A stretch of 64,000 nt of DNA, from NCBI GenBank assembly GCA_964601975.1, contig CAZRPW010000002.1:2152-66151 (forward strand). The letters are read 5' to 3'. The notes beneath the pieces were generated by a model. The model did no database searches and was not told the DNA's origin. It saw only the letters and a list, made by a program, of their open reading frames with translations. The stretch's first letter is position 1. The number at the start of each line of letters is the position of its first letter. The DNA is from an uncultured Bacteroides sp. (GTDB lineage: Bacteria > Bacteroidota > Bacteroidia > Bacteroidales > GCA-2748055). Shown here piece by piece: positions 19,258 through 35,736 of this stretch. A program made the position numbers and the translations under genes.

Positions 19258-20439
19258 TTATATATCCAGTTTAGCAATATAGGTCTCCATATCCTTATCT
19301 CCCCGGCCCGACAGGTTAACCACGACCACATCATCTGAGCCAAAAGATAGCTTCTCCAGTGCAGCCAGGGCATGAGCTGATTCCAGGGCCGGGATGATTC
19401 CCTCCTTCCGTGTGAGGAGCAATGCAGCCTGAAGCGCTTCATCATCAGTGGCTGAAAGCACCTTAGCCCTTCCCGAACTGGCCAGCCAGGCATGCAGTGG
19501 CCCCACTCCCGGATAATCGAGTCCGGCCGAAATAGAATACGGCTCCACAATCTGACCATCATGGTCCTGCATGAGCAGTGTTTTACTTCCATGTATAATC
19601 CCATGGCTTCCAAGAATGCTGGTGGCAGCTGAAGCGCCGGAATCCACACCCAGTCCGGCTGCCTCGACCGAGACCAGCTTCACTTCTGGATTATCCAGGT
19701 AGTGATAGTAAGCCCCCGCAGCATTACTTCCGCCTCCCACGCAGGCAATCACATAATCGGGGCACTCCCTGCCGGTTTTTTCAGCCAGTTGAATCCGCAT
19801 CTCACTGGAAATCACAGCCTGAAACCTGGTGACCATATCTGGATATGGATGAGGACCGACCACTGAACCGATGATATAATGTGTATCGACCGGATTGTTG
19901 ATCCAGTCACGAATGGCTTCATTGGTGGCATCCTTCAGGGTTTTACTCCCGCTGTATACAGGGATCACCTCGGCACCCAGCATCCTCATCTTTTTTACAT
20001 TGGGAGCCTGACGCTCTACATCCACCGCACCCATATATACGATACAATCCAGTCCGCTCAGGGCACAGACGGTTGCTGTAGCCACGCCATGTTGTCCGGC
20101 CCCGGTTTCGGCAATAATCCGCCGCTTACCCAGATGGCGTGCCAGGATAATCTGGCCCACTGTATTATTGATCTTATGCGCACCTGTGTGGTTCAGGTCC
20201 TCCCTTTTTAAGTAAATATTCGTGCCGTAGTATTCCGAAAGACGACCGGCTCTGTAAAGCGGACTGGGCCTCCCCACATAATCCTTCAATAGAGAGGTAT
20301 ATTCCTCCCTGAACGCTTCCGATTCAATAATCTCCAGGTAGCGCCCTTCAAGCTCCTTCACATTGGGGTATAGCATCTCCGGGATATAAGCCCCCCCAAA
20401 TGCACCGTAAAAACCTTTTTGATCCACACTGTATTTCAT
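19258..20439 (-). CDS. trpB: Tryptophan synthase beta subunit
   Basis: GRPSPLY, the PLP lysine motif LKREDLNHTGAHKINN, and GGGSNAAG are present. Confidence 0.97.
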   Translation of the reverse strand: MKYSVDQKGFYGAFGGAYIPEMLYPNVKELEGRYLEIIESEAFREEYTSLLKDYVGRPSPLYRAGRLSEYYGTNIYLKREDLNHTGAHKINNTVGQIILARHLGKRRIIAETGAGQHGVATATVCALSGLDCIVYMGAVDVERQAPNVKKMRMLGAEVIPVYSGSKTLKDATNEAIRDWINNPVDTHYIIGSVVGPHPYPDMVTRFQAVISSEMRIQLAEKTGRECPDYVIACVGGGSNAAGAYYHYLDNPEVKLVSVEAAGLGVDSGASAATSILGSHGIIHGSKTLLMQDHDGQIVEPYSISAGLDYPGVGPLHAWLASSGRAKVLSATDDEALQAALLLTRKEGIIPALESAHALAALEKLSFGSDDVVVVNLSGRGDKDMETYIAKLDI

Positions 20440-20451
20440 CTTTCCTATTTT

Positions 20452-21096
20452 CTAATTTCCATATTTTCTTATTCGCGCTATAAAATGCTCCAGTTTTTCA
20501 ATATTCTTCAGACCGGGGGCATCCTCAAACCTGCTGTTCACATCTACTCCACGGAACATCAGGTGATCAACCTTCCCAATGGCTGCTCCATCCTCAGGTC
20601 CGATTCCACCGCTGAGCAAAAACGGAACCGGAAGCGCATATGCACTAAGAAGATCCCAATCAAATTTTTGGCCTGTCCCCCCTTTGCCCTGGGCAGCTGC
20701 ATCAAAAAGGAAATAGTGAACCACCCCATAGTACTCCTCAAGGCTACCTGGCGTCAATAATTGATCCGGGCCAAGAGCCTTTATCACATGCACCCCTTCA
20801 TTCACAAGCGACTTGCAATAATCCGGAGACTCGTTGCCATGTAACTGCACCACATCGAGCCAACCCAGCTCAAGCTTACTTCTGACTGATAAGACAGGCT
20901 CATTCACAAAAACCCCCACCCTCGATACCCTGTCTTCGGGAATATGAAAAAGGGCCTCATCAGGTTTATCACCCACATACCTTTTCGATCCACGGAAAAA
21001 TATATATCCAACGAAATCGGGTCCCAGCTCACAAAGCTGTTCAATATTTCCAGGCTCGGTCATGCCGCAAACCTTTATCTTCAGTCCATCGCTCAT
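20452..21096 (-). CDS. trpF: Phosphoribosylanthranilate isomerase
   Basis: LKIKVCGMT, VQLHGNES and LLSGGI are present. I chose the ATG at 21096; the track start at 21114 is a TTG. Confidence 0.9.
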   Translation of the reverse strand: MSDGLKIKVCGMTEPGNIEQLCELGPDFVGYIFFRGSKRYVGDKPDEALFHIPEDRVSRVGVFVNEPVLSVRSKLELGWLDVVQLHGNESPDYCKSLVNEGVHVIKALGPDQLLTPGSLEEYYGVVHYFLFDAAAQGKGGTGQKFDWDLLSAYALPVPFLLSGGIGPEDGAAIGKVDHLMFRGVDVNSRFEDAPGLKNIEKLEHFIARIRKYGN

Positions 21097-21100
21097 CACT

Positions 21101-21877
21101 TCAAAGTTTTTCAATGAAACTCCTGCAGGCCTCGCCCGGATCGCTCTGCTTCATAAAGCGCTCTCCCATAAGGAAGAGCTTAAAACCTGCTTCGAACAGC
21201 AAAGCAATTTCTCCGGGAGAGTTGATGCCGCTTTCAGAGACCGGAATTACGCCTTCGGGCATCTTCCCGATCAGGTCCAAGCTGCGTCCTGTATCCACCT
21301 GGAAGGTCTTCAGGTCTCTGTTATTCACCCCCACAAAACCAATAGAAGGCACATACTTCTCCAACTCAGCTTCATCATGCACCTCGAGCAACACATGCAT
21401 CCCGAGCGCTTCAGCTTCGCCTGCCAGATCAGCCAGCTCCTGCTTTCCGAGAATTGCAGCAATGAGCAGGATCATATCCGCACCATAGGCACTTGCTTCA
21501 TGAACCTGGTAAGGATCGATGATGAAATCCTTCCTCAGCAGGGGCAGACCGGGACAGGCCTCCCTGGCATCCGCAAGGTCACGGAACGATCCTCCAAAAA
21601 ACTTCCGGTCGGTGAGTACACTCATCACGGAAACACCTGCTGCCTGGTAGGCAAGCGCTACCTCCTTTGGATCTGACTTTATATTCAAAGCACCTTTGGA
21701 AGGTGATCTGCGCTTGAACTCGGCGATAATCCCCGGCTTTCCTTCCCCGGGCAGTATAATGGGGTTGACCTTTCTCCGGTAGTTGGGAAAAGAGGCCAGA
21801 TTTGACAGGGGGCGCTTCTGTTTCCTGAGCAGCAGCTCCATCCTTTTGTGTTCAACGATGGTATCCAGAATATTCAT
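21101..21877 (-). CDS. trpC: Indole-3-glycerol-phosphate synthase
   Basis: IIAEFKRRSPSKG, LRKDFIIDPYQV, VGVNNRDL and SESGI are present. Confidence 0.95.
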   Translation of the reverse strand: MNILDTIVEHKRMELLLRKQKRPLSNLASFPNYRRKVNPIILPGEGKPGIIAEFKRRSPSKGALNIKSDPKEVALAYQAAGVSVMSVLTDRKFFGGSFRDLADAREACPGLPLLRKDFIIDPYQVHEASAYGADMILLIAAILGKQELADLAGEAEALGMHVLLEVHDEAELEKYVPSIGFVGVNNRDLKTFQVDTGRSLDLIGKMPEGVIPVSESGINSPGEIALLFEAGFKLFLMGERFMKQSDPGEACRSFIEKL

Positions 21878-22869
21878 TATTTACCCTCCACCAGATTTGT
21901 AAATGCTTCAAGGGCGGCCCCCGATTTCAGCGAGATCCTTGCACGCTCAAGCGAATTGTCCAATCCCTGGTCCTCATCCATACAATAAAGGGCAAAGGCC
22001 GCATTTGCCAGAACCACATCGTTCTGCGCCTTCGTGCCATTGCCCTTCAGGATCTCCAGAAAGATTCCGGCTGCCTCCTCCACGGTGGATCCGCCATAGA
22101 TTGCCCCTGCCTGTACTAGTTCAAGACCCAAATCTTTTGGTGAAAGGGTTCGCTCAGTTTTCAGAGTAAGTGCCTTAAATGAGCCCGTCAGAGAAATTTC
22201 ATCATAACCATCCATGGAGTGTATGATGCAATACTTCTTCCCGGACTCCTGGTACAAATAGTGGTAGAGCCTGGCCACATCCAGACTAAACACTCCCACC
22301 ATTTGGTTGCCGGGTGATGAGGGATTTACCATGGGACCCAGCATATTGAAAAAGGTTTTAATACGCAGGCTCCGTCGAACAGGAGCCACATTCTTCATGG
22401 CCGGATTAAACAACGGGGCATGCAGAAAACAAATGTTGTAGCGATCTATCTCCCGCCTTAACTGGTCCGGATCGTTAGAAAACTTATACCCGTAATACTC
22501 CAGCACATTCGAGGAGCCACAGGCCGATGAGACACTGTAATTGCCATGTTTTGCAACCTTCTCCCCTGCCCCGGCAACCACGAAGGAAGTGAGGGTGGAA
22601 ATATTGAAGGTGTTTTTCTCATCCCCCCCGGTTCCACACACATCGATTGTATTAAAATCCGACAGGTCCACCGGTTGGCAAAGGTCCATCAGTGCATCCC
22701 GGAACCCTGCCAGCTCTTGTACTGTAATGCTCCTCATAAGGTATACCGAAATAAAGGCTGCAATCTCAGCATCATTATACTTACCCCCGGCCATGTTGGT
22801 CATAATCCGACGGGCATCTTCTTTTCCCAGGGTCCTGTGATCAAATAAATATTGTAATGTGTCTTTCAT
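21877..22869 (-). CDS. trpD: Anthranilate phosphoribosyltransferase
   Basis: IDVCGTGGD, FNISTLTSFVVAGAG..VAKHGN and NMLGPMVNP are present. It overlaps the trpC start by 1 nt. Confidence 0.95.
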   Translation of the reverse strand: MKDTLQYLFDHRTLGKEDARRIMTNMAGGKYNDAEIAAFISVYLMRSITVQELAGFRDALMDLCQPVDLSDFNTIDVCGTGGDEKNTFNISTLTSFVVAGAGEKVAKHGNYSVSSACGSSNVLEYYGYKFSNDPDQLRREIDRYNICFLHAPLFNPAMKNVAPVRRSLRIKTFFNMLGPMVNPSSPGNQMVGVFSLDVARLYHYLYQESGKKYCIIHSMDGYDEISLTGSFKALTLKTERTLSPKDLGLELVQAGAIYGGSTVEEAAGIFLEILKGNGTKAQNDVVLANAAFALYCMDEDQGLDNSLERARISLKSGAALEAFTNLVEGK

Positions 22870-22900
22870 AAAAATATCGTTTCACTTATTTAGCAAGTGG

Positions 22901-23009
22901 TTAATAGCAAATAGTTATTGGTGAACAGTAAATAGCAATTAGTTATTGGCAATTAGTAATTAGGAAGACCCATTTGCCAATTGCTATTTGCTATGTACCA
23001 TTTGCTATT
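22901..23009. repeat. Intra-operon repeat/hairpin element between trpG and trpD
   Basis: The octamer AATAGCAA occurs at 22903 and 22931. Its reverse complement TTGCTATT occurs at 22981 and 23002, and as 7/8 at 22988. Two ~25-nt direct repeats have a ~27-nt period: TTAATAGCAAATAGTTATTGGTGAA at 22901-22925 and GTAAATAGCAATTAGTTATTGGCAA at 22928-22952. An inverted partner TTGCCAATTGCTATTT lies at 22975-22990. Confidence 0.6.
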
Positions 23010-23574
23010 TTTTTACCCAATTCAATATCATCTTCCCTCCAAACTCGGTCAAAACCGATTCGGGATGAAACTGCACCCCCCTCACATCATGTTCCCGGTG
23101 TCGCAGGGCCATAATAAAACCCTCATCATTTTCAACGGTAACTTCCAGTGCTGCGGGAAGTGTTTCAGGCTCCACCACCCAGGAGTGATATCTGCCTGCA
23201 TCAAAATCCACCGGGACACCCTCCAGCAGATAATCACCCTCAATCACCTGTTTCATTTGTCCGCTCACACCATGGTAAACCTTCGAAAGGTTTACAATTG
23301 AGCCACCGTATGCCTGGGCAATGGCCTGGTGACCCAGGCAAACGCCAAGGATGCTTTTTGTAGCGCCATATCTCTTTATCATCTCCAGGGTAATCCCCGC
23401 TTCTTCAGGTATTCCCGGCCCCGGACTAATAAGGACCTTATCATACTTATCAACTTCATCCAGGGAAATCTGGTCGTTTCTGAAGACATCCACAGGCTGC
23501 TTTATGACCCTCTCAATGTATTGGACAAGGTTGTAGGTGAATGAATCGTAATTATCAAGTACCAGTATCTTCAT
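23005..23574 (-). CDS. trpG: Anthranilate synthase component II (glutamine amidotransferase)
   Basis: MKILVLDNYDSFTYNLVQY, the catalytic Cys motif GVCLGHQAI, and FHPES are present. The ATG is at 23574. Confidence 0.93.
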   Translation of the reverse strand: MKILVLDNYDSFTYNLVQYIERVIKQPVDVFRNDQISLDEVDKYDKVLISPGPGIPEEAGITLEMIKRYGATKSILGVCLGHQAIAQAYGGSIVNLSKVYHGVSGQMKQVIEGDYLLEGVPVDFDAGRYHSWVVEPETLPAALEVTVENDEGFIMALRHREHDVRGVQFHPESVLTEFGGKMILNWVKK

Positions 23575-23581
23575 TGTCTTT

Positions 23582-25000
23582 CTATTTATCATGATTAAGG
23601 CCCTGGGCCATTTTAATTGCAGATTTCAAGGCAGCCAGCTTATTGTTCACTTCTTGCAGTTCGCCCTCTTCGGTCGACTCAGATACCACACCGGCACCAG
23701 CCTGGTAGTAGAGTACGTGATCACGTGAGAGGAAGGAACGGATCATAATGGCATGATTGATATCACCATTGAAGCGAATGAATCCGATGGTTCCTCCGTA
23801 GTAACCCCGGCGCTTCCCTTCATAACGGTCGATCAGCTCCATGGCCTTGTATTTCGGAGCTCCTGAAAGCGTTCCGGCAGGAAAGGACTCTGCCATGATC
23901 CGGATGGTATCCGCATTTTCAGGAAGGGTCCCTGACACCTTTGAAACCATGTGGATCACGTGCGAAAAGAACTGGATCTCGCGATAAAACTCAACCCTTA
24001 CCTGGTCGGTGGTCCTGCTCAAATCATTTCTTGCAAGGTCTACCAGCATCACGTGCTCAGCATTTTCCTTATCATCATTTGCCAGTTTTATGGCAAGTTC
24101 CTGATCCTCCCGGTCATTTCCCGTCCGCTTGAAAGTACCCGCAATGGGATTTATACTGGCCTTCCCTCCTTTCACTTCGATCTGGGCCTCGGGGGAAGAA
24201 CCAAATATCCTGTAGCTTCCATAGTCAAAGTAGAAAAGGTAAGGGGAGGGATTTATAGATCTCAGGGCCCTGTATACATTAAATTCATCACCGGTAAAGG
24301 ATTGAGAGAACTGCCTTGAAAGAACAATCTGGAACACATCTCCTCTGAAGCAATGCTCTTTTCCCTTGCTTACCATATTGCGATAATCCTCATCACTCAG
24401 GTTAGACATCTCGCTACCCTCCAGGTCAAAACCGTAGGTAGCGATATTCCGGTTGTGCAAAAGAGAACTTACCTTATCTATCTCGCTCTCCCCTCCATTA
24501 ATAATGTGTTCGAAAAGCGTAAGTTCATTTGAAAAATGGTTGATCGCAAGTACAAAACGAAAGAAATTGTAGCGCAGTTCCGGGATCTCCTCCTTTTCCG
24601 GCATAGGAGAAGAGAAAGTAATATCTTCGAAATACTGAACAGCATCATAGGAAGTATAACCAAATACACCATCGACCATCATATCCTCAGCGCCAGCGCT
24701 AATCTCAAATGAGGAAATAAACTGGTTGAGCTGCTCTACTGCCCCCTGCTTTTTGCTCAGCGGAGTCTGAACAGTCTCTTCCCCGGGCATGGAGATGCTG
24801 CACTGGCCCCGATGTACCATCAGTTCAGCCACAGGATCCATGCAGATGAAGGAGTAGGAATTCTCCTTGCTGTGATAATCAGAACTCTCCAGCAAGAGGG
24901 AGTTAGGGTATATATCTCTTACTTTCAGGTAAATGCTGACGGGCGTAATGATATCAGCAAGAATTTTTCGGGATTCAACCCTGATGCTTGTTTTGGTCAT
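23582..25000 (-). CDS. trpE: Anthranilate synthase component I
   Basis: LLESS, PSPYLFYF, the chorismate-binding domain motif GTLSGAPK and GGTIGF are present. Confidence 0.95.
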   Translation of the reverse strand: MTKTSIRVESRKILADIITPVSIYLKVRDIYPNSLLLESSDYHSKENSYSFICMDPVAELMVHRGQCSISMPGEETVQTPLSKKQGAVEQLNQFISSFEISAGAEDMMVDGVFGYTSYDAVQYFEDITFSSPMPEKEEIPELRYNFFRFVLAINHFSNELTLFEHIINGGESEIDKVSSLLHNRNIATYGFDLEGSEMSNLSDEDYRNMVSKGKEHCFRGDVFQIVLSRQFSQSFTGDEFNVYRALRSINPSPYLFYFDYGSYRIFGSSPEAQIEVKGGKASINPIAGTFKRTGNDREDQELAIKLANDDKENAEHVMLVDLARNDLSRTTDQVRVEFYREIQFFSHVIHMVSKVSGTLPENADTIRIMAESFPAGTLSGAPKYKAMELIDRYEGKRRGYYGGTIGFIRFNGDINHAIMIRSFLSRDHVLYYQAGAGVVSESTEEGELQEVNNKLAALKSAIKMAQGLNHDK

Positions 25001-25141: not shown

Positions 25142-25231
25142 GTCTTTGTGTTTACAGGGATCAAAATAAGAGAAAGATTTCTATTAATCCAAATTTGATT
25201 ACTTTCGAGTTTGAATTTTCAGGATCATTCA

Positions 25232-25981
25232 ATGGCAAATAAATACTTAAGGAATATTGCACTCTTCTTCACCATCTGGGTGATAGTCATGGTTATATAC
25301 GCTGTGTCGTCCAGGGTAACAGACCTCGAATATCTCTGGAAATTTTTTTTACTTCCCGCCCTCTTTCTTTCGTTAATTGCTGCCCTGGCAACCACTTTTG
25401 AGCATCTATTCAAAGTCAGAAAGGGAATCAACTGGATATTTCTGGCGCTTGCCGTAGGCTGCGACCAGGGCATAAAGGCCTGGCTCTTCTCCCTTGAATG
25501 GGAATCCATCTCCATCCCCTTGATTAAACCTGTATTTTTCATCGAGCCCACTCAGAATACCCTGGGCTCGTACCTCTGGGTATTACTGGGATTAAAGGAA
25601 GGCTCCCATCTGCTCAATATCATTCTTTTCAGCCTCATTGGCATCCTCTTCATAGAGATCTGGCGCTTCTATGTAAGCAGAAAGCGGAACTCCTTCTGGA
25701 TCAATGGGTTTATCCACCTTTTCCTGGCCGGACTCCTGGCCAATTTGATTGATAATGCCTTCTGGGGAGGATCCTTGGATTATATAACCATCAAGCCCTT
25801 TTATACCTTCGATTTGAAGGATCTCTACATCACCCTCTGCGAACTCTTCCTGATCACAGAACTGATCGACAATAAGTTGCTAAAGAGATTCCTGAACATG
25901 CCGAAGGAGGACAGCAAGCGAATCAATAAGGACTTTTTCGCATTTATAAAAAAAGATTTCCGAATCGGCAGGAAGTCTTAA
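25232..25981 (+). CDS. Divergent signal peptidase II (LspA)-like polytopic membrane protein
   Basis: The LspA-like motifs are CDQGIKAW (compare lDQ.tK), NTLGSY (compare N.GaaF), LANLIDNAFWGGSLDYI (compare GN..DR...G.VvDf) and FDLKDLYI (compare FN.AD..I). There are extra N-terminal TM helices and a basic C-terminal tail. The assignment is tentative. Confidence 0.5.
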   Translation: MANKYLRNIALFFTIWVIVMVIYAVSSRVTDLEYLWKFFLLPALFLSLIAALATTFEHLFKVRKGINWIFLALAVGCDQGIKAWLFSLEWESISIPLIKPVFFIEPTQNTLGSYLWVLLGLKEGSHLLNIILFSLIGILFIEIWRFYVSRKRNSFWINGFIHLFLAGLLANLIDNAFWGGSLDYITIKPFYTFDLKDLYITLCELFLITELIDNKLLKRFLNMPKEDSKRINKDFFAFIKKDFRIGRKS

Positions 25982-28962
25982 TTCCCATTCCCCAGGTTAA
26001 ACTGGAAGAGTTGTTCTCCCTCCTGGAACTGAATGGCCCGCCGTTGTTCAACGAACTTGAAATCGAGGTTGATGGTCTTGTTTTCGGTAAACTGGACTTT
26101 GTAAGATCCCCGCTCAAGGCGGAAATTCTCCCCATAAACATTGTAAATACTTACCTCGTAGGAACTGGCTTTGGGAAGGTCCAGCACATAGCTGCCATAT
26201 CCACTGGTAAGAACCGCAAAACTTTCACCGCTTTCGCTAACTGCCGTCACACGTATCCCCGCCATTGAAATGGCCCCCTCTGTGGAATTCGGATCGCGGT
26301 CTATGATGATTCTGCCCTTAATTTTATGACTTTCAACAAGCGGCAAATAGTAAACCATGTCGTCATTGATCTCGATGGTCTGATTAGTCCCATTCAGAAA
26401 GTAGAGATTCTCAAGCTCTGAAAGCGAGAGGATTGAAAGATCATAAACCCCCAAGGGGATATTTTCATAGTTTATCTCACCGGTAGGATCGGTAATCATT
26501 CCGATCTCTGCAAATCCGCTTCTCTTTTCCACATTCTTCTTTGGATCCCTGGAAAGATTTATAAGCACATTGGAGATGGGTTTTTCATTATCCCCTTTAA
26601 TACCATCTCCATTCAGATCATTAAAGCCAATGATGGTGAGATCATAGAATCCCAGCCGGGGTTGTTGAATATCAAAAGCCTTACGCACACCCACAAAAAC
26701 ATTCAAATCACGGGTGGTAATCTTACCGATCTCAGAATCACGACGGGTCACCCTGTAAAGATTCACACTTGTAAAAATGTTCCAGGTTTCTCTAACTCTC
26801 ACATTTCCGGTCAGGTTGAAAATCAGGTTTTCGCGCATGGAGGGCATGTAGTAAGAGTAGTTCGCGTAAGCACTCAGGCGCACGGCCTCCTTTAACAAAT
26901 ATCTTTCATAATAAGGCCTGATATGGAAGGCCTGGTTAATTACCGGGTCATCCGATACAACCACTGTTCTGTATATGTCGGCCGCTTCTCCCGAAGTATA
27001 ATAGGCATTTAGTTTGAAGGCCCTGTCGTAATAATTGATCCCAAGGGTATAAGTCCACTTATTACCGGGACCTGCATTCTCAGCCCCCGGACCCACAATC
27101 TCATAATTATAGAACATCATGTTAAAGGAAGCATTGGGAGTGATGCTGCGCTGATTCCTCATCCTGAAAGAAACCGAGCCCATTAAACCGGGCCGATAAT
27201 TTGAAAACCTCGTCCGGTAGCCATTATAACTACTGTAGGAATTTCTAACGGTACCAAAATATTGTGGCCCCACCTGGTAGATAACCTTACCCATGTTGTA
27301 TGCCATAAGCACACGCGCATTTTCATTTAGATTTTTGTTGGGCTCGTAAATGAAATTTATGGGGTAGCGGGTTGTTGAATAGTTGTTGCGGTAATAACGT
27401 GCATTCAAATAAAGACTTTTTTGAAATCGATAATCTCCCGAAAAATTAATACGATTCATACCGCTGTTTCTCAGGTAAGTATATAGGGTGTTGGTATTAT
27501 CCAGATTCAGGTTCATACGACTTCCGTTATAACGATACTTCAGCTGATATGCGATGCCCACAACCGTAGTATCATCATCCTGGAACATTTCATGTTTAAA
27601 CTGGCTCAGCGAGGTGGCCGTCGCCAGATCGAGACTATGACTCCTGTATGTGTAGCCTCCCCCCAGGTGAATAGTAGAATGGCTATATCGCTGATCAGTG
27701 CTTGTTTCAAGAGTGACCCCTGCATTCAGGTCCACATTGCGAAGCACAGTCTCATAACCCACAAAACCTCCAATATTTTTATTATAGGGGTTTTGTACCA
27801 AACTGATCTCGGCCAGGTTACGGCTGCTAATTTGTTGAGTGGCATGTATCCCTCTTCCTGAAAGGGTATGTAGCGTACCAACCCCGATTCGATCGCCTAG
27901 CAGCACCATAGTGCTGTGATCCGTATATAGTGCCATAAACCTCAACTGATCATAGAGGTTCATATTCCTGTTCATCTCCGGGGCAAAATAGAAGTTGTAA
28001 TAGCCCAGAGAATAGGATAAATTCTGATCTTCGGGAAAAAGCACCTTTCCAAAGACCCTTGCAGAAGACTTTATGCGTTGTTGGGAAAGCAGGTTATAAA
28101 AGGTAAGTTCGGCATTGACTGGTGCATTCTGAATAGGGTGACGATTTACGACTTTGCTTTCCAATACAGTGGTTCGAACCGAACCCCAGGTTGAGTTATC
28201 TGCCGTGGATGCTCTGATATCAAGATTGTGGGCTTTCCATGAGTTTCTAAAGGCCTGCTCTTCTGCATATGAAAGATCCCTCCTGCTTTGAATTCGGAAT
28301 TTCAGGCTGGTATCCTTGTTCGCCGGGACCTCCACATAGAGGAAACTGTCTGCCTCCAACTCATCCCTGAACTGAATCAATCCCCCCATATCAAAGGAAA
28401 GCTTGATGATCTCATTGGAGTTGCCTGTATTACTCAGGTTTACATCCACATCGCTATAGGGTTTATATTCTGAGAAATAAAGCTGGTCGACGCTTAAGCG
28501 CATATCCCATTTCGATATGGGCTTCACAGAGATATAGGCATTGGTATAATTGTATAAGTCCTTCCCAAACAACTCTGCTCCAAGCACAAAAGACACCCCT
28601 CCTACGGTATTCCCCGGCATAGCAATCCTCACCGGAATCAGCCGGGTCTCGCCGGCATCAATGCTAAGGCTATCAAGCTCTTTTCCAACAAAGGCCCAGG
28701 AATCCGGGAAATTAAACCTGATAATACCCGAGAGTCTTTCATTGCTGCGATTTGCTATTTCCAGCACATTGAAAAGACTTCCGGGCTTCTCCAGCTCCAC
28801 TTCTGTTTTAACAAAGCGTAATGTAAACAAGCTATCCGGGGCTTGCTGTTGGGAAAAGAGACTGATGACAGGCAAGAAAAGCAGACATAAAGCACAAAGA
28901 AATTTCGCGCTTGTATTTCCCAAGGCAGTAACCCTTCTAAATATTTTAGGCCCTCCTGTCAT
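25978..28962 (-). CDS. Large outer-membrane protein, usher-like in domain order (function unknown)
   Basis: A signal peptide (FLCALCLLFLPVISLFSQQ) is present. There are two N-terminal Ig-like modules (LEIANRSNERLSGIIRFNFP...IPVRIAMP; VNLSNTGNSNEIIKLSF...VEVPANKDTSLKFRIQ). A ~480-aa Tyr/Asn/Gly-rich region of alternating beta-strands follows. The C-terminus has an SdrD-B/Cna-B-like module (FNDLNGDGIKGDNEKPISNVLINL) and a carboxypeptidase-regulatory-like module (IKGRIIIDRD...IRVTAVSESGESFAVLTSGYGSYVLDLP). I chose the ATG at 28962; the track start at 28992 is a GTG. Confidence 0.55.
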   Translation of the reverse strand: MTGGPKIFRRVTALGNTSAKFLCALCLLFLPVISLFSQQQAPDSLFTLRFVKTEVELEKPGSLFNVLEIANRSNERLSGIIRFNFPDSWAFVGKELDSLSIDAGETRLIPVRIAMPGNTVGGVSFVLGAELFGKDLYNYTNAYISVKPISKWDMRLSVDQLYFSEYKPYSDVDVNLSNTGNSNEIIKLSFDMGGLIQFRDELEADSFLYVEVPANKDTSLKFRIQSRRDLSYAEEQAFRNSWKAHNLDIRASTADNSTWGSVRTTVLESKVVNRHPIQNAPVNAELTFYNLLSQQRIKSSARVFGKVLFPEDQNLSYSLGYYNFYFAPEMNRNMNLYDQLRFMALYTDHSTMVLLGDRIGVGTLHTLSGRGIHATQQISSRNLAEISLVQNPYNKNIGGFVGYETVLRNVDLNAGVTLETSTDQRYSHSTIHLGGGYTYRSHSLDLATATSLSQFKHEMFQDDDTTVVGIAYQLKYRYNGSRMNLNLDNTNTLYTYLRNSGMNRINFSGDYRFQKSLYLNARYYRNNYSTTRYPINFIYEPNKNLNENARVLMAYNMGKVIYQVGPQYFGTVRNSYSSYNGYRTRFSNYRPGLMGSVSFRMRNQRSITPNASFNMMFYNYEIVGPGAENAGPGNKWTYTLGINYYDRAFKLNAYYTSGEAADIYRTVVVSDDPVINQAFHIRPYYERYLLKEAVRLSAYANYSYYMPSMRENLIFNLTGNVRVRETWNIFTSVNLYRVTRRDSEIGKITTRDLNVFVGVRKAFDIQQPRLGFYDLTIIGFNDLNGDGIKGDNEKPISNVLINLSRDPKKNVEKRSGFAEIGMITDPTGEINYENIPLGVYDLSILSLSELENLYFLNGTNQTIEINDDMVYYLPLVESHKIKGRIIIDRDPNSTEGAISMAGIRVTAVSESGESFAVLTSGYGSYVLDLPKASSYEVSIYNVYGENFRLERGSYKVQFTENKTINLDFKFVEQRRAIQFQEGEQLFQFNLGNGN

Positions 28963-28981: not shown

Positions 28982-29596
28982 TTAGAATCCACCTCCTGTG
29001 GGGATAAGTTCCAATTCGATTTCTACCCGATAGTAATCAGGAGCCTCTCCCAAAAGGGAACCATTGCCTCCCTCCGCTACCGGCAATCCACATTCATAGG
29101 AAATAACCAACTGGTTCATGTCCCAGACCAGGTCCTCAAAAGTCCCATCAGAATCTGTATAGGAGCATAGAATCTCAGAACCAGCAGGCAAATCAATAAA
29201 GCCCTCGGAAGTAAAACCCGTGCCAAACCCCATATAGTTCTCAGCTTTTATCCTTATACGATTAAGATCCAGGCTATTTGCATCACCCATAATCTCGGTG
29301 GCACCATTAAAAGCCCGCACCTGTAATTCGAATCCGGTAAGGTTGGTACCTGCCTGGGCCGAGTCCACCATGGTGACCCCCAATATGGTCCCCTGATCAA
29401 CAACCTCTCCCTCTTTGTACTTTTTGATGGAATTGAAATTGAAAGGAATATCCCCGCCATAAATGAGTACCAATCTAGCATAATTGTACTCCTGAGCCGC
29501 AGCTCCTGCCGAGAACATGAATATAGAGAACACGATTAAAAGCCGAAACTTTACCCCCTGGGTCCTGATCATAAACAAGTTGCGTGTTTCCAACAT
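28982..29596 (-). CDS. Secreted pilin-like beta-sandwich protein, paralog B
   Basis: A signal peptide (SIFMFSAGAAAQE) is present. It shares GGDIPFNFNSIKKYKEG, YECG and the C-terminal APDYYRVEIELEL with the upstream gene. An alternative start is the ATG at 29572. Confidence 0.5.
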   Translation of the reverse strand: MLETRNLFMIRTQGVKFRLLIVFSIFMFSAGAAAQEYNYARLVLIYGGDIPFNFNSIKKYKEGEVVDQGTILGVTMVDSAQAGTNLTGFELQVRAFNGATEIMGDANSLDLNRIRIKAENYMGFGTGFTSEGFIDLPAGSEILCSYTDSDGTFEDLVWDMNQLVISYECGLPVAEGGNGSLLGEAPDYYRVEIELELIPTGGGF

Positions 29597-29603
29597 TTAA
29601 AAC

Positions 29604-29636
29604 AGAAATAGTCAACCAGAAAGGCTGACTATTTCT
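29604..29636 (-). terminator. Intercistronic stem-loop between the two pilin-like genes (possible partial terminator or mRNA stabiliser)
   Basis: AGAAATAGTCA-N11-TGACTATTTCT forms a perfect 11-bp stem. On the transcribed strand it is followed by GUUUUAA and then the ATG at 29596. A second 6-bp hairpin, AACCAG-TCTTC-CTGGTT, lies at 29647-29663. Confidence 0.5.
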
Positions 29637-29686
29637 AAAATCCGATAACCAGTCTTCCTGGTTGAATCCTTTGAACTCAAATCAGC

Positions 29687-30370
29687 TTATTTGATTCCCA
29701 GTTCAAATAAAACATTGGTTACATACCTGTCAGGAGCCGGACTTGGGTCCTGGTTCAGGATGCTTTCAGCTTCCATCTCATTAGGATTTCCGGAAGTTTC
29801 ACCAGTTCCACATCTCCATATCATCTGGAATGAATTATCAACTCCATCACCGGCATTGGCAGCAGCAAGACCATTGTCGTCGATCAATGCAACAGGATAG
29901 GCTTCAAGACCAGCAACTGCAGTACCGTTCTCAGTAGGGGCACTCCATAGTTCACCAGTTCCAGCACCCTGAACAATACCTGCTTCAAAAAGATGGGTTC
30001 CTTCTGATGACAGGGTGTAACCTACATTGTTCAATGCAAGCGTTGCTGTAGGATCATCTGTACCGATAAAGGTAGCCTCCTCAGATCCGTAATTAAGTAT
30101 CCAACGTGCCGATGATGCAATATTAAAGTCTGTTATATAAAAATCTCCACTGGCTGCGGGATTGGCAGCACCGGCACCTGATAACCCCAGACGGTAATCA
30201 TCAATTGAGTTAAATACAAACTCTATATTTCCCCCGTTGGTGATAGTCATTCTCAGCACCTGGTTCAGGTTCACTGCTACAGGAATCACCTGCCTGTCTT
30301 TTACTGCCTGGGAAAACCCAACCATTCCAATGGTTAACATTCCAAGGATCACAATTGCTCTTTTCTTCAT
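29687..30370 (-). CDS. Secreted pilin-like beta-sandwich protein, paralog A (candidate major subunit)
   Basis: A signal peptide (IGMVGFSQA) is followed by an alternating-hydrophobic N-terminal strand (VIPVAVNLNQVLRMTI). The composition is Gly/Ala/Thr/Asn-rich. The motifs GGNIEFVFNSIDDYRLG and WRCG are present. The C-terminal strand APDRYVTNVLFELGIK resembles the G.Y...v.v ending of SCPU/Csu/DUF4402-type fimbrial subunits. Confidence 0.5.
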   Translation of the reverse strand: MKKRAIVILGMLTIGMVGFSQAVKDRQVIPVAVNLNQVLRMTITNGGNIEFVFNSIDDYRLGLSGAGAANPAASGDFYITDFNIASSARWILNYGSEEATFIGTDDPTATLALNNVGYTLSSEGTHLFEAGIVQGAGTGELWSAPTENGTAVAGLEAYPVALIDDNGLAAANAGDGVDNSFQMIWRCGTGETSGNPNEMEAESILNQDPSPAPDRYVTNVLFELGIK

Positions 30371-30402: not shown

Positions 30403-30410
30403 TATATTTG
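30403..30410 (+). promoter_or_regulatory. Bacteroidota -7 promoter motif (TAnnTTTG) upstream of the chaperone-like gene
   Basis: TATATTTG lies 68 nt upstream of the ATG at 30478, in the divergent intergenic region. Confidence 0.35.
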
Positions 30411-30477
30411 CTTTAAATAAAGCCACAGCTAATTTTGATTAAAATTAATCCTTCTTGATTATACTTATTTGACCAAC

Positions 30478-31296
30478 ATGCAAATTTTATCAACAAAACA
30501 TAAGCTTATCCTGATTAACCTTTTTTTAACAGGGGGAATATGTGGGTTTTCCCAGGACTTTGAGATTGCCCCGGTACTGGTTGCCTTTGATGCAAACCCG
30601 GGTGAAACCCAGACACAAACACTGGCCCTCAGGAACCACGGCAACGAGAAACAAAAGTTTGTATTAAACCTTGCTGATTATACGGTAAATGAAGAAGGTG
30701 CCAAAATATCAAGTGCCGCCGGATCATCGAATCGCTCCCTTACAGACTGGATTGCAATCAACCCCTCCTTCGTTGAATTGAATCCCAATGAGGCTGCCAG
30801 CATCAACCTGAATATAACAGTTCCCCGAACCGGATTTAACACCCGATGGGGCATGATCCAGGTGGAAGTTGCCAAAGAGCAGATAGCATCAGATGCAGAC
30901 AAGCAATTGGCTGCCGGAGTACTCGTAGTACCCAGAATAATTGTCCTTGTAAAACAAAGCCCAAGATCAAATCAGAATTTCGAAGGAAAGGTCAGCGGAC
31001 TGAGGGAGGTGGAAAACCCAAAAAGCGAATTTCGAAGTTTTGAAGCAACCATCACAAACACGGGAGATAAAATTCTGGATGCCCGGGCATTTCTGGCAAT
31101 TGCCAATCTTGAAACTGCCGAAGAAAAGCAATTCAATCCAATGCCAGTAACCATCTATCCGGAACAAAAAAGAAAACTGATGCTTACCTTACCCGAGACC
31201 CTGGGACCCGGTCAGTATGCCCTGGCTTTCCTGCTCGATTACGGGCACCGTTCGGCCATCGAAGGAGCCCAGATTCTATTAAGTGTTGAACAATGA
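30478..31296 (+). CDS. Periplasmic two-domain Ig-fold protein, fimbrial-chaperone-like (function unknown)
   Basis: A signal peptide is present. Domain 1 reads FEIAPVLVAFDANPGETQTQTLALRNHGNEKQKFVLNL...WIAINPSFVELNPNEAASINLNITVP. Domain 2 reads FEATITNTGDKILDARAFL...IYPEQKRKLMLTLPETLGPGQY. The size and two-Ig layout resemble PapD-like or DUF916-like assembly chaperones. Confidence 0.45.
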   Translation: MQILSTKHKLILINLFLTGGICGFSQDFEIAPVLVAFDANPGETQTQTLALRNHGNEKQKFVLNLADYTVNEEGAKISSAAGSSNRSLTDWIAINPSFVELNPNEAASINLNITVPRTGFNTRWGMIQVEVAKEQIASDADKQLAAGVLVVPRIIVLVKQSPRSNQNFEGKVSGLREVENPKSEFRSFEATITNTGDKILDARAFLAIANLETAEEKQFNPMPVTIYPEQKRKLMLTLPETLGPGQYALAFLLDYGHRSAIEGAQILLSVEQ

Positions 31297-32483
31297 TCCG
31301 AATTACGATCCTGTGCATCATCCTGCTCTTTGCCACAAACTTATCCGGACAGGAGACTTTTGTCTCCTTCTGGGATAAGGAGCATCAGCATATCAGGGAG
31401 ACCTTTCAATACAAGCTATCCGGATCTGATACAATCCGGATGGGATCCTACCAGATTTTCTACAGCAGTGACACCCTTTGGCAATCCGGATCCTATGTAA
31501 AAGGGAAGATGAACGGCCTCTGGCTGGACTATTATCCTGACGGAACCCTGAGGCAGGAACTACCCTATCAAAAAGATAAACTGGAAGGCGTACTGAGGTA
31601 TTACTATCCGGATGGATCACTTTACCAGGAGGCCGCCTATAAAAGTGATGTTTTAGAAGGCCAGACCATCCTCTACCATCCAAATGGAAAAGTGAACGAA
31701 AAAGCCAGCTACAAAGATGGAAAGAGAAATGGGAAAGTGGATTGTTACCATGAGAATGGAAAAACAAGGTTCTCAAAGAGCTATCTAAATGGAAGAGAGG
31801 ACGGACCTCAGCTGATCTATTACGAAAATGGCTACATTCGGGAAGAATCCTGGATGAAGGCTGGGAAATATAATGGTGAGTTCAGGGGATATTATAAAGA
31901 TTTTGAAGATGGGACCCTGCAAAAGATCTGTCACTACCGGGACGGGATGCTGGAAGGAGACTTCACCGGCTATTATCCCTCGGGACATATAATGCTTAAG
32001 TGCCAGTATCAGAATAATCAAATCCAGGGTGAGTGGATCAAATATTTCGATCCCCTGCTGCCCGATTCCTCAGCTCAAATCCAGGAAAAGGGATTTTACA
32101 AGAATGGAGAAAAGAGCGGTATCTGGCAAAGTTTCTATCCCAATGGAACTGTTTACACTGAAGGTAAGTATTCAGGAGAGAAATTCCAGGGATCATGGAC
32201 CATCTACTTCCCCAACGGAGCCATTAAACAAAAGGGCAGTTATATGGATGGCAGGGCCACAGGGGAATTTCTTTTTTATTATGAATCCGGTAACCTGAAA
32301 AACAAAGGATCCTACCTGGATGATCAAAAAACAGGCACCTGGATTACCTATTATGAAACGGGGGAAATCATGACCGAAATTCCTTTTGTGAACGGACAGC
32401 GCCATGGCACCGCAAGGGCCTTTAATGAAGAAGGCAAAATTGTAGAAACTTTGAAATATGATAAAGGCAGGGAACTTCGGTAG
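31293..32483 (+). CDS. Secreted MORN-repeat-variant (YwqK-like) repeat protein
   Basis: A signal peptide is present. It is followed by ~14 tandem ~23-aa repeats of the form G.w..YY.nG.l..e..Y..gk..G. The start overlaps the preceding gene by ATGA. Confidence 0.7.
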   Translation: MIRITILCIILLFATNLSGQETFVSFWDKEHQHIRETFQYKLSGSDTIRMGSYQIFYSSDTLWQSGSYVKGKMNGLWLDYYPDGTLRQELPYQKDKLEGVLRYYYPDGSLYQEAAYKSDVLEGQTILYHPNGKVNEKASYKDGKRNGKVDCYHENGKTRFSKSYLNGREDGPQLIYYENGYIREESWMKAGKYNGEFRGYYKDFEDGTLQKICHYRDGMLEGDFTGYYPSGHIMLKCQYQNNQIQGEWIKYFDPLLPDSSAQIQEKGFYKNGEKSGIWQSFYPNGTVYTEGKYSGEKFQGSWTIYFPNGAIKQKGSYMDGRATGEFLFYYESGNLKNKGSYLDDQKTGTWITYYETGEIMTEIPFVNGQRHGTARAFNEEGKIVETLKYDKGRELR

Positions 32484-32868
32484 ATGGTTTATTTTAATAC
32501 CACTGCTGGCAGGCATTTGTGTTTCCTGTGACGAGACTGGCACGGGGAACTATACGTCCATTGAAGGTATATATACATGCCAGGAATCATCACCCCATGC
32601 CGGTGTCAGGCAGTATCCGGTTGAGATTGATAAGGTAAAAGATTCCGAAGACCTTTACATAATTATCAATTTTCACAATAAAGGTGAAAACGAATTTGTC
32701 TATGCTGAGCTGGAGATTGACACCCTCAGGATATCTAATCAGACCCTTGTAGATATCAGAGTGGATGGAAAAGGTATAGTTGCAGAAGAATACAGGTCCA
32801 TCCACCTCAACTACCTCACCGATGATGGCACTACCCTGCTTGATTACTACAGCACTTACAGTCGCTAA
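32458..32868 (+). CDS. Small hypothetical lipoprotein
   Basis: The N-terminus WFILIPLLAGICVSCDE is a lipoprotein-like signal. No family was recognised. It overlaps the preceding gene by 26 nt. Confidence 0.45.
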   Translation: MIKAGNFGRWFILIPLLAGICVSCDETGTGNYTSIEGIYTCQESSPHAGVRQYPVEIDKVKDSEDLYIIINFHNKGENEFVYAELEIDTLRISNQTLVDIRVDGKGIVAEEYRSIHLNYLTDDGTTLLDYYSTYSR

Positions 32869-33365
32869 TTCGGCGCCACAGGCTGAACCGGGTATTGCTC
32901 AAAAATAGCTGCAGCCACCTTTGGGAAATTCTCAGCCCTTTTTGCCGGATCGCCGGATAGTTCACCCACAGCGGAGGCATGCCACACATGCTTCTGGGTG
33001 CGGACATCAAACATATCCAGGGCGATTGCACGTTCCATATAGGAGCGGGTAGGGTAATAGTAGTAAGAACGGTCCATTGCCTGCCTGTGATAAACTGTAA
33101 GCTGAATCGTTACATCGGGATTCACCTCTGAAAACTTAAACCCCCGGTTCTCCATCTCCCGGGCAAAAGCCACCCGGATTCTCTCAAGCTCCATCCCGGT
33201 AATCGTCTTCTTATTACCATCCGTAAAATCCAGAAAGGTGTAGGTTTTATATGATTCAAAAGGTGCTGTATTCTCAAGGTCTGTATAAATCCGAACCGAG
33301 GGTCCGCAAGCGTTAAGAAACGCAAGCGATACCATTGCCAAAAACATGAATATCCTGTTCATCAT
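32865..33365 (-). CDS. DUF4136-like lipoprotein
   Basis: The lipobox is AFLNAC|G. It is followed by SVRIYTDLENTAPFESYKTYTFLDF, typical of the DUF4136 family. Confidence 0.6.
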   Translation of the reverse strand: MMNRIFMFLAMVSLAFLNACGPSVRIYTDLENTAPFESYKTYTFLDFTDGNKKTITGMELERIRVAFAREMENRGFKFSEVNPDVTIQLTVYHRQAMDRSYYYYPTRSYMERAIALDMFDVRTQKHVWHASAVGELSGDPAKRAENFPKVAAAIFEQYPVQPVAPN

Positions 33366-34443: not shown

Positions 34444-35736
34444 ATGAAAAGCACTATGAGAATAAAAGGAGGCGGACTGCTGGCAGGATTACTCATGCTG
34501 AGTACAACGGCCCTGGCCTTACCCCGAATCGAAGAAGAGTTTACCGACACCCTCAATTTTGACACCTACAATGGTCTTGTGGTAGATATGGTAAACAGTC
34601 GTAACCTGCCCTTTGCCACCATTGAAGCTATAGGGAGCAATGTGGCAACTGTCTCAAATATTGATGGCGAGTTTATAATTAAAATAGCCAAAGACTCGAA
34701 GGTCTCGGAACTAAAAATCTCCTACATTGGATTTGCCAATGAAATCGTTTCCCTCTCAGATTTCAAAGAAAATCGAGCCAAAATAATCGGCATGAAACCA
34801 AGCGCTGTTCAATTGAAAGAAATTACGATCCGGCCACAGGATGCCCTGGAACTTATGGTGGATGTTCTCGCAAATATCCGTGAAAACTACAGTGTGGATC
34901 CAATGATGATGAGGGGATTCTATCGTGAAACCATCCAGAGAGGCAAGAACTATGCATCCATTTCAGAAGCGGTGGTTGATATATTTAAAGGAAGTTATGT
35001 AAATGATTTCCAGATAGACCAGGTAAAACTATTCAAAGGCAGGAAGAGCGCCGACGTAGAAAAGATGGATACTGTTTTGTTCAAGGTACAGGGCGGTCCA
35101 AGCACCACCATTTTACTGGATGTGGTAAAAAATCCTTACATCCTTCTATCGTCAGATTATGGCGACATCTACGATTTCAACCTGAGCGATGTAATTAGCA
35201 TTGATGACCAGCTTCACTATGTGGTTTCATTTAACCAGAAAGAACACATATCGGAGCCCTATTATAATGGCCGATTTTATATTGACATGGAGAAACTTGC
35301 CATTACAGAAGCTGTATTTGAATTAAATACCGAGAATGAGGAAGAGGCTGCCCGTCTCTTTATCCAGAGAAAACCCATGGGCATGAGCATCATTCCTGAA
35401 AAAGCAGCCTACCGCGTAAAATATACAGTGGAGGATAATCGCTGGTATTTCCGCTACGCCAGGGCAGAGGTCAAATTTAAGGTAAGCTGGAAAAAGAAAC
35501 TCTTTAACACTACCTACTCCACCATGTCGGAGTTGGCAATTACAGACCGAACCTATGAAGGCATTGAGAAATTCTCCGGGAAAGAACGATTCAGGACAAA
35601 CGATGTGATGAATGATAAGGTATTCACTTTCTTCGACCAGGGATTCTGGGAAGGATATAACGTCATAGAACCCGACCAATCGATCGAGAGTGCCATCAAG
35701 CGACTGAATCGCAAATACCTGAAGAGAAACGGTTAA
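34444..35736 (+). CDS. Carboxypeptidase-regulatory-like domain protein (unknown function), STN-less paralog of 37389..38921
   Basis: A signal peptide is present. The CarboxypepD_reg-like module reads VVDMVNSRNLPFATIEAIGSNVATVSNIDGEFIIKI. The C-terminal ~300 aa are clearly homologous to 37389..38921 (RGFYRETIQRGKNYASISEAVVDIFKGSY versus TAYYRESVKRNEHCMLFSEAVLNVAKGPY). Confidence 0.6.
   Translation: MKSTMRIKGGGLLAGLLMLSTTALALPRIEEEFTDTLNFDTYNGLVVDMVNSRNLPFATIEAIGSNVATVSNIDGEFIIKIAKDSKVSELKISYIGFANEIVSLSDFKENRAKIIGMKPSAVQLKEITIRPQDALELMVDVLANIRENYSVDPMMMRGFYRETIQRGKNYASISEAVVDIFKGSYVNDFQIDQVKLFKGRKSADVEKMDTVLFKVQGGPSTTILLDVVKNPYILLSSDYGDIYDFNLSDVISIDDQLHYVVSFNQKEHISEPYYNGRFYIDMEKLAITEAVFELNTENEEEAARLFIQRKPMGMSIIPEKAAYRVKYTVEDNRWYFRYARAEVKFKVSWKKKLFNTTYSTMSELAITDRTYEGIEKFSGKERFRTNDVMNDKVFTFFDQGFWEGYNVIEPDQSIESAIKRLNRKYLKRNG

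Follow-up and report, generated by a model that had tools for sequence, protein, structure and literature searches.

A predicted giant outer-membrane barrel as candidate usher-like pore for TLP-1-type pili in Bacteroidota

How might a member of the Bacteroidota build an extracellular fibre from subunits joined by donor-strand exchange? To our knowledge, the phylum is known for type V pili and type IX secretion system (T9SS) adhesins, not for chaperone-usher pili. The question is raised by a 64,000-nucleotide stretch of DNA from an uncultured Bacteroides sp. (GenBank assembly GCA_964601975.1, contig CAZRPW010000002.1, positions 2,152 to 66,151), here called the window, whose own positions serve as coordinates throughout. 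An earlier note, made from the letters alone, had described at 25978-28962 an outer-membrane protein of about 1000 residues with an usher-like domain layout. The open reading frame (ORF) is indeed found there, on the minus strand, and encodes 994 aa counted from its ATG; the protein, predicted to form a barrel, is named big994 below. We propose, with moderate confidence, that a chaperone-usher-like pathway of Bacteroidota builds donor-strand-exchange pili of the TLP-1 type and that big994 is its component in the outer membrane, where it does the usher's job. Its gene stands with those of a major pilin (p227) and a shorter subunit (p204), opposite a divergent operon for a chaperone-like protein (chap275), a MORN-repeat protein (MORN396) and a small lipoprotein (p136).

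TLP-1a, like TLP-1b, is an 8-nm tubular fibril discovered by cryo-electron microscopy (cryo-EM) of filtered pond water (CryoSeek, 2024; PDB 9IKJ/9IKK; PMC11494351). In these fibrils, protomer n+4 lends its N-terminal strand to protomer n and so completes the latter's Ig-like fold. The authors left the organism, the genes and the assembly route unidentified, and found the best relative among the predicted structures of the AlphaFold database in a Flavobacteriales bacterium (PMC11494351). A literature search returned no later identification of the TLP-1 source or machinery. A 2025 preprint uses the name "TLP-2" for a dipeptide glycofibril that has no relation to TLP-1, and the PDB entry labelled TLP-2 (9IKK) is TLP-1b.

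The AlphaFold2 (AF2) model of p227 (predicted local distance difference test, pLDDT, 81; predicted template modelling score, pTM, 0.71; N-terminus disordered) was compared by Foldseek with 350,542 PDB chains, and only TLP-1a (9ikj_A) and TLP-1b (9ikk_A) were found at E<=1e-3, with E 1.2e-5, probability 1.00 and 17-18% identity over about 250 columns. The next fold matches were the chaperone-usher pilins CfaB, CS17, CooA, CsuE, EcpA and SafA. The same two chains were the top PDB matches by sequence, with E 0.45 for the p227 profile, 0.13 for a 48-sequence profile and 0.04 for a single distant member. The segments aligned, QVIPVAVNLNQVLRMTITNGGNIEFVFNSIDDY in the p227 family and QNVTVTMDLQPVLQLSMQGSETVSFVFSQISEY in TLP-1, cover the donor strand (approximately VIPVAVNL in p227) and the strand that follows it; in the profile alignment, TLP-1 residues 6-68 fall on p227-family positions 27-89, starting just past the predicted signal-peptide cleavage site. 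Like TLP-1, p227 thus combines a cleaved signal peptide, here a predicted one, with an N-terminal donor strand, and its N-terminus is of low confidence in the monomer model, as was that of the reference protein in the TLP-1 paper. The pilus module also occurs in Flavobacteriales, the order of TLP-1's best relative in the AlphaFold database. At just 17-18% identity, however, the window organism is not the TLP-1 producer, and the four-chain tubule was seen for TLP-1, whereas p227 is known here from its gene and predicted fold. The alternative or archaic pilins that come next in fold (the class 5 group of CfaB, CS17 and CooA, Csu, and EcpA) likewise have an incomplete Ig-like domain completed by the N-terminal strand of a neighbour, but they match more weakly (E 3e-3 to 0.7), their donor is protomer n+1, and p227 is larger (about 205 aa when mature), with long surface loops.

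Both p227 and p204 carry signal-peptidase-I-type signals with no Cys lipobox. A type V pilin of the FimA/Mfa1 kind was ruled out, since the two proteins have neither a lipoprotein Cys nor any Pfam or NCBIfam match; T9SS cargo was ruled out as well, because no Por_Secre_tail was found in big994, p227, p204, chap275 or MORN396 (Pfam, NCBIfam) or in p136 (Pfam).

The families of p204 and p227 are homologous (hhalign probability 98.4%, E 9e-15), and in their alignment p204 shows a single gap, of 13 residues, which coincides exactly with DRQVIPVAVNLNQ, the donor strand. Mature p204 starts about five residues ahead of the next strand. In chaperone-usher pili, the subunit lacking the N-terminal extension enters first and sits at the distal tip; because the donor strand is exactly deleted, p204 is, by analogy, likely the tip subunit. 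Between the p227 and p204 genes lies a terminator- or attenuator-like hairpin. Perfect stems of 12-19 bp, mostly U-tailed, were found 3' of the pilin gene in 25 of the 29 related loci examined, and the stem sequences vary by lineage (loci L023, L024, L026 and L032) while pairing is retained. Attenuation has been reported to keep the major subunit in excess in classical fimbrial operons, and the hairpin fits such a role by analogy: it would hold p227 above p204 and the barrel.

The three genes travel together. In 30 genome loci, wherever the upstream flank is long enough, the p227 and p204 genes adjoin the barrel gene; in the window, 20 nt separate the p204 stop from the big994 start. Nearly all of the 30 also have the divergent operon chap275-MORN396-p136 (30469-32868), and in nearly all its chaperone and MORN genes are no more than 8 kb from the barrel gene. 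The core of the module thus consists of major subunit, short subunit and barrel, with the chaperone-like and MORN genes usually nearby. Pilin, short pilin and barrel keep this order at identities of 99% down to 25% and from one taxonomic order to another. The module persists at barrel identities as low as 25% and is seen in Bacteroidales, Paludibacteraceae and Flavobacteriales; all other flanking genes differ between the distant loci. At the far end of this range, locus L031 encodes a 210-aa subunit (31% identity), a 153-aa subunit (27%) and a barrel with an OmpA domain, and divergently a 297-aa chaperone-like protein (37%) and a 399-aa MORN protein (30%). The module was also found in L032, in the OmpA-type loci L035 and L036, and in a Flavobacteriales metagenome-assembled genome (L043). 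In two Paludibacter loci (L024, L029), the chaperone operon has shifted to the other side of the barrel gene with linkage kept. The MORN396 start overlaps the chap275 stop by 4 nt, and the MORN gene adjoins the chaperone gene in relatives down to 30% identity. Among the six proteins of the module, MORN_2 is the sole curated family reached in Pfam, NCBIfam and PHROGs scans.

big994 itself reached no curated family in those scans, and its family profile found nothing among PDB sequences at E<=10. Its start is supported by Met1 being invariant in alignment A1 (33 homologues); an alternative GTG upstream, at 28992, would overlap the preceding gene. The close homologues (n=41, 48-99% identity) come from Bacteroidota/Bacteroidales metagenome-assembled genomes and are all annotated "hypothetical", other source names being just "OmpA family protein". 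Against 1.84 billion representatives, the profile reached 989 clusters (at 50% identity) with E<=1e-3, of which 247 also pass E<=1e-30; a large share of the matched proteins are 1170-1440 aa long. Long relatives that were sampled end in an OmpA domain (P0101, P0129) or a SPOR domain (P0047, P0060), both of which bind peptidoglycan. Neither domain is present in big994 or in its close relatives.

The AF2 model of big994 was built on alignment A1 (mean pLDDT 76, barrel blocks mostly 85-95), and strands were counted from its secondary-structure string, not from coordinates. Two N-terminal Ig-like modules, a strand-like middle region and two C-terminal modules had been read from the sequence before, and each finds its counterpart in the model: a pair of beta-sandwiches, about 26 long strands predicted to form a transmembrane barrel, and two further beta domains. 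The Cna-B-like and CarboxypepD_reg-like character of the last two is echoed by weak Pfam matches, SdrD_B on residues 780-862 (E 1.4e-6, under the curated cut-off) and CarboxypepD_reg on 899-942 (E 2e-3). In some relatives the latter domain rises above the cut-off, as in P0101 (51 bits against 32.3), and relatives run on past it into their OmpA or SPOR domains. The motif FNDLNGDGxK of the Cna-B-like domain is conserved, with N781, D782, G785 and G787 nearly invariant in A1. Foldseek matches of the first N-terminal sandwich were HYDIN/ASH-type Ig arrays, and one relative matched NPCBM_assoc there (Pfam). The barrel region was said to be rich in Tyr, Asn, Gly and Ser; this stands for Tyr (9.7%) and Asn (10.1%), against 3.5% and 6.6% in the N-terminal part, but Gly and Ser are not enriched.

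On which side of the membrane do these domains lie? The inter-strand loops of the model (8,5,14,3,5,4,4,2,5,2,12,4,8,2,11,2,4,3,9,3,20,4,3,3,3 residues) alternate between longer and short, the usual outer-membrane-protein pattern, which puts the N-terminus in the periplasm. The OmpA or SPOR tails of relatives bind peptidoglycan, so the C-terminal sandwiches are periplasmic, and a periplasmic C-terminus with an even strand count places the N-terminal domains there too. Both termini should thus be periplasmic. Since the longest loop has 20 residues, no insertion of plug size (about 75 residues) is present in the barrel. That loop holds a conserved helix (659-670), just before RPYYERY, the most conserved motif of the family. 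The most conserved stretch (…DIYR…NQAFHIRPYYERYF…; residues 660-693, window 26884-26985, minus strand) starts in this helix, runs into the next strand and could be a lumen or gating element.

Foldseek of the barrel region against the PDB matched only large outer-membrane barrels of 22-26 strands, all at low TM-score (template modelling score): LptD, MtrB, PapC/FimD and TonB-dependent transporters, the LptD, MtrB and TonB-dependent scores being similar to that of PapC. Pfam and NCBIfam scans at E<=1 matched none of the families for TonB-dependent receptors, Plug, Usher, LptD or the T9SS C-terminal domain, in keeping with the claim that a TonB box, a plug and a T9SS C-terminal domain are lacking. 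The strand count, the search for a plug and the structural comparison had all been suggested in the earlier note; a barrel is predicted, and no confident match to an unrelated characterised family was found, so that its usher analogy is supported and extended.

The likeness to PapC and FimD lies in layout and in gene context. In big994, a very large barrel is preceded by periplasmic beta-sandwich domains and followed by two more, an arrangement that is analogous, not homologous, to that of ushers. Its gene directly follows pilin genes, with a gene for a two-Ig-domain chaperone-like protein close by in the conserved module. The pilins are chaperone-usher-like in fold with an N-terminal donor strand, one subunit lacks that strand, as tip adhesins do, and a stem-loop follows the major-subunit gene. 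The differences are that big994 has two N-terminal Ig-like domains against the usher's one N-terminal domain, that its C-terminal domains are Cna-B-like and CarboxypepD_reg-like, with OmpA or SPOR domains added in many relatives, and that the system, found in Bacteroidota, has a MORN-repeat protein and a lipoprotein as extra conserved partners.

The chaperone candidate, chap275, probably starts at the ATG at 30478. Pfam matches across its family are all weak and Ig-like (fn3_5 in 18/18 members, Cep192_D6 in 13/18, WxLIP_PGBD in 9/18); ASH, HYDIN and MSP are matched by few members, MSP, a family with the PapD-like fold, in 2/18. PapD_N was matched by 0/18, and no PapD_C match was seen either. 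The family profile found nothing among PDB sequences at E<=10, and hhalign found nothing against FimC alone. Against nine E. coli PapD-like chaperones, however, hhalign gave 78% (E 1.8e-5) over 217 collinear columns in both domains, signal peptides included, and control alignments of the PapD-like set gave 0.9% with the barrel family and 0.8% with the pilin family. With or without signal peptides, the same motifs align: PSFVELNPNE with TPPLxxLxA, IVPRIVVLVKQSP with SRIKLFxRP (the G1 donor strand) and LMDYG with INDYG. The G1-like strand of chap275 contains VLVVPRIIVLVK and a nearly invariant Arg156, two residues before the column aligned with Lys112. In size, in having two Ig-like domains and in these collinear G1 and INDYG-like motifs, chap275 resembles FimC, PapD and EcpB; it differs in its weak statistics without signal peptides, in lacking an Arg8 equivalent and in matching neither PapD_N nor PapD_C. 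Remote homology to PapD-like chaperones is suggestive at the level of sequence. The x-L-x-N-x-G-N pattern that the N-terminal Ig domains of big994 were said to have in common with chap275 proved to be a generic Ig-domain motif, and homology between the two was dropped (hhalign probability 0.8%).

How would such a pathway work? Judging by their N-terminal signals, all six products are predicted to be exported, five through signal-peptidase-I-type sites followed by Gln and p136 as a lipoprotein. In the periplasm, chap275 would cap the open groove of p227 and p204, as suggested by its place in the module and by its weak alignment with PapD-like chaperones, and the resulting complexes may dock, by analogy with usher domains, on the periplasmic Ig-like and beta-sandwich domains of big994. 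With an acceptor body and no donor strand, p204 would enter first and end at the tip. Subunits of p227 would then add singly, each inserting its N-terminal strand into the previous one; this exchange was seen by cryo-EM in TLP-1, to which p227 is homologous at the level of fold. The growing chain would leave through the barrel of about 26 strands, the sole outer-membrane barrel of the module. An 8-nm tubule of four laterally packed donor-strand chains can form only outside the cell, and several barrels side by side would, speculatively, probably be needed for it. The OmpA and SPOR domains of many relatives may tether the machine to peptidoglycan. We propose big994 as the pore because the pilins carry signal-peptidase-I signals, no lipobox and no T9SS domain, and because the barrel is the only outer-membrane protein in the module; as a predicted giant barrel in a conserved cluster with a TLP-1-type subunit, it is the best candidate for a TLP-1-type export and assembly pore, although export through the barrel is itself inferred.

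Several observations weigh against this proposal. A donor at n+4 means four donor-strand chains, which one usher-type pore cannot extrude as a unit (PMC11494351). The TM-score of p227 against TLP-1 is just 0.43 (Foldseek), lowered by the signal peptide and free N-terminus in the p227 model; sequence similarity to TLP-1 is confined to the N-terminal 65 residues or so, and the C-terminal half of p227 alone did not find TLP-1 by sequence. On the side of the chaperone, mature regions alone gave a probability of only 11% (E 2.6e-3, score 27.7) against PapD-like proteins, where 24 block-shuffled controls had a mean score of 15.1 (sd 2.05, maximum 19.2; z 6.1). The chaperone claim was downgraded because the 78% was partly driven by signal peptides. 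The FimC Arg8 column holds Leu or Val in chap275, not a basic residue, so that the Arg8/Lys112 pair with which PapD-like chaperones bind the C-terminus of the subunit is not found in the alignment columns. Two Paludibacter-type loci (L025, L026) have the pilin, short pilin and barrel genes, but neither a chaperone nor a MORN gene is present up to 8 kb to either side; the two may be absent, or may lie at another genomic site, as the operons that have moved in L024 and L029 suggest. The MORN protein and the lipoprotein are without counterpart in classical systems.

The barrel itself also departs from ushers, which have 24 strands and a plug inserted between strands 6 and 7. big994 has 26 strands and no plug-sized insertion, Usher, PapC_N and PapC_C are unmatched at E<=1 (Pfam), and hhalign of the barrel family gave 0.6% against FimD and 0.15% against seven E. 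coli ushers, on which remote sequence homology was rejected. An usher-like layout without sequence similarity, as first read, is thus what the searches returned. Lacking sequence match, strand number and plug, big994 falls outside the usher family, whereas its layout and gene context agree with an usher; most likely it works like one, possibly as an independent invention.

What else could big994 be? The four chains of TLP-1, awkward for a single pore, and the recovery of TLP-1 fibrils free in filtered water (PMC11494351) would suit a curli-like route. There, the big994 channel would release unpolymerised pilin kept soluble by chap275, and the fibre would grow outside on p204 or p136 as nucleator or anchor, with no usher-catalysed exchange at the pore. 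Donor-strand fibres elsewhere can polymerise without a chaperone (TasA; archaeal cannulae), and neither a plug nor usher sequence similarity was seen in big994. We nevertheless regard this route as unlikely, given that a two-domain protein aligning with PapD-like chaperones is conserved with the module, that the periplasmic domains of big994 mirror an usher's, that a subunit without a donor strand suits a distal tip better than a cell-proximal nucleator, and that groove-open subunits, as established for chaperone-usher pilins, are normally unstable when uncapped. The same lack of plug and usher motifs, together with the OmpA or SPOR domains of many relatives, named only "OmpA family protein", would also allow big994 to be a base in the outer membrane, tethered to peptidoglycan, on which the fibre is held or organised while the pilins cross by another machine. 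PorE, the periplasmic T9SS tether, has CarboxypepD_reg-like and OmpA_C-like domains, and the CarboxypepD_reg-OmpA tail of relatives resembles its C-terminal half; this arrangement speaks for the anchor. PorE, however, is a lipoprotein with no barrel, in an entirely different gene context. A barrel of 26 strands is far bigger than an anchor requires, OmpA and SPOR domains are absent from big994 and from its close relatives, the pilins lack a T9SS or lipoprotein export signal, and no second outer-membrane barrel is conserved in the module, which leaves a purely anchoring role quite unlikely.

A chance neighbour, such as a nutrient-uptake porin or an LptD-like or MtrB-like sheath merely beside pilin genes, seems very improbable. 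LptD, MtrB and TonB-dependent transporters were matched at PapC-like scores, and the barrels of LptD and MtrB do have 26 strands; yet big994 lacks the LptD N-terminal jellyroll, LptE and MtrA/C partners, and any cytochrome partner. TonB-dependent transporter or LptD identity was ruled out, with no plug, TonB box or OstA-type N-terminal domain found (Pfam/NCBIfam, E<=1). Pilin, short pilin and barrel also keep their order over the whole identity range and across orders while other flanking genes change, and just 20 nt lie between p204 and the barrel gene. For the usher-like pore, the chief difficulty is a geometric one: a tube 8 nm wide is too large to pass through a barrel of 26 strands, so that either chains are extruded side by side by several barrels and zip up outside the cell, or polymerisation is extracellular and curli-like.

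Table 1. Features of the pilus module and related loci (window positions unless a locus is named; a slash marks the predicted cleavage site or lipidated Cys).
Feature	Position	Strand	Basis
big994 gene, candidate usher-like assembly pore	25978..28962	-	ORF, homologues, AF2 model
big994 signal peptide, aa ~1-37, predicted cleavage LFS/QQQ	28852..28962	-	Sequence; AF2 low-confidence helices at 6-36; cleavage site inferred
Ig-like beta-sandwich 1, aa 46-146, predicted periplasmic	28525..28827	-	AF2 strands, pLDDT ~80-87
Ig-like beta-sandwich 2, aa 152-266, predicted periplasmic	28165..28509	-	AF2
Predicted transmembrane beta-barrel, ~26 strands, aa 282-763	26674..28119	-	AF2 secondary structure, pLDDT, Foldseek
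C-terminal beta-sandwich 1, aa 772-877, SdrD_B/Cna-B-like, predicted periplasmic	26332..26649	-	AF2 (lower confidence); sub-cut-off Pfam SdrD_B
C-terminal beta-sandwich 2, aa about 899-972, CarboxypepD_reg-like, predicted periplasmic	26047..26268	-	Pfam; AF2 beta domain ~904-972, confidence low
p204, short pilin paralogue without donor strand, predicted tip/initiator subunit	28982..29596	-	hhalign, alignment A3 against A5
15-bp hairpin then UUUU between p227 and p204 genes, terminator/attenuator-like	29603..29637	-	Consensus scan; RNA fold z = -4.1
p227, major pilin, homologue of TLP-1a/b protomer	29687..30370	-	AF2 model, Foldseek, PDB sequence matches
TATATTTG, TAnnTTTG match upstream of chaperone operon	30403..30410	+	Read from sequence
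chap275, periplasmic, two Ig-like domains, candidate pilin chaperone	30469..31296	+	Module conservation, weak Pfam, hhalign
MORN396, secreted MORN-repeat protein	31293..32483	+	Pfam MORN_2 E 2e-41
p136, small predicted lipoprotein (…VSC/DETG), overlaps MORN gene end	32458..32868	+	Sequence; conserved in related loci
Signal-peptide spans of five Gln-starting proteins	28852-28962, 30311-30370, 29494-29596, 30478-30560, 31293-31355		
TPR+SpoIIE genes	L031:4662-6614, L035:4800-6713, L036:4742-6670		OmpA-type loci

Some further features of the module and its surroundings may be noted. Gln is the first residue after the predicted signal-peptidase-I site in 5 of the 6 module proteins (FS/QQQ, FS/QAV, AA/QEY, FS/QDF and SG/QET), which fits the "Q-rule" reported for exported proteins of Bacteroidota. 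In p136, the acidic residues after the lipidated Cys (C-D-E-T) resemble the surface-export signal of Bacteroidota lipoproteins, and on this sequence likeness the protein might be surface-exposed. The TAnnTTTG match upstream of the chaperone operon is a putative -7 promoter motif of the Bacteroides type. A distant, fully collinear variant of the module, in L033:3069-11576, runs from a GerE/LuxR-type regulator through a chaperone and a MORN protein to small subunits of 166, 177 and 165 aa, all three no longer matched by the p227 and p204 profiles, and then to a barrel of 1068 aa and a small lipoprotein unrelated to p136. As in classical fimbrial operons, the kinds of subunit seem to change more quickly than the machinery does. 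In three sampled OmpA-type loci, the chaperone operon and the pilin genes have between them a gene for a protein of 637-650 aa with TPR and SpoIIE (PP2C phosphatase) domains, and in L035 and L036 a SiaC-family gene lies within about 6 kb, which suggests partner-switching control of the pilus in such loci. The window itself has no TPR+SpoIIE gene.

Other genes lie nearby. A homologue of LspA (signal peptidase II) with an N-terminal membrane extension of about 75 residues (25211-25981, plus strand) converges on the barrel gene, the 3' ends overlapping by 4 nt; since close relatives keep this adjacency and distant loci do not, it probably reflects synteny alone. A run of tryptophan-biosynthesis genes (19258-25000, minus strand; trpB-, trpF-, trpC-, trpD-, trpG- and trpE-like by ORF translations only) is unrelated to the pilus module, and trpE is syntenic in close relatives. 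Just past the module lies a DUF4136 lipoprotein gene (32865-33365, minus strand), syntenic in close relatives only, and farther out a gene for a 430-aa secreted protein (34444-35736, plus strand). Family scans of the neighbouring genes matched the families Peptidase_A8 and DUF4136.

What would these findings mean for the Bacteroidota? The orphan TLP-1 structure gains candidate genes, a candidate source at the level of the phylum (Bacteroidota, including Flavobacteriales) and a candidate machine. Interest is high because the origin and biogenesis of TLP-1 become testable: its producer and the assembly of a four-chain tube are now open to experiment, within a large family that carries only the two database names given above. 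A bolder and more tentative proposal, for which we would put the chances somewhat below even, is that big994 founds a new class of pilus-assembly translocon, widespread in Bacteroidota and independent of the PapC/FimD ushers. Together with a diverged PapD-like chaperone, a MORN protein and a lipoprotein, it would build four-chain TLP-1-type tubes, several barrels extruding parallel chains that zip together outside, unlike any known usher system. If the proposed role is true, Bacteroidota would have a further outer-membrane assembly route, a donor-strand pathway whose usher is either non-homologous or diverged beyond recognition, and one would have to ask whether ushers have had more than one origin.

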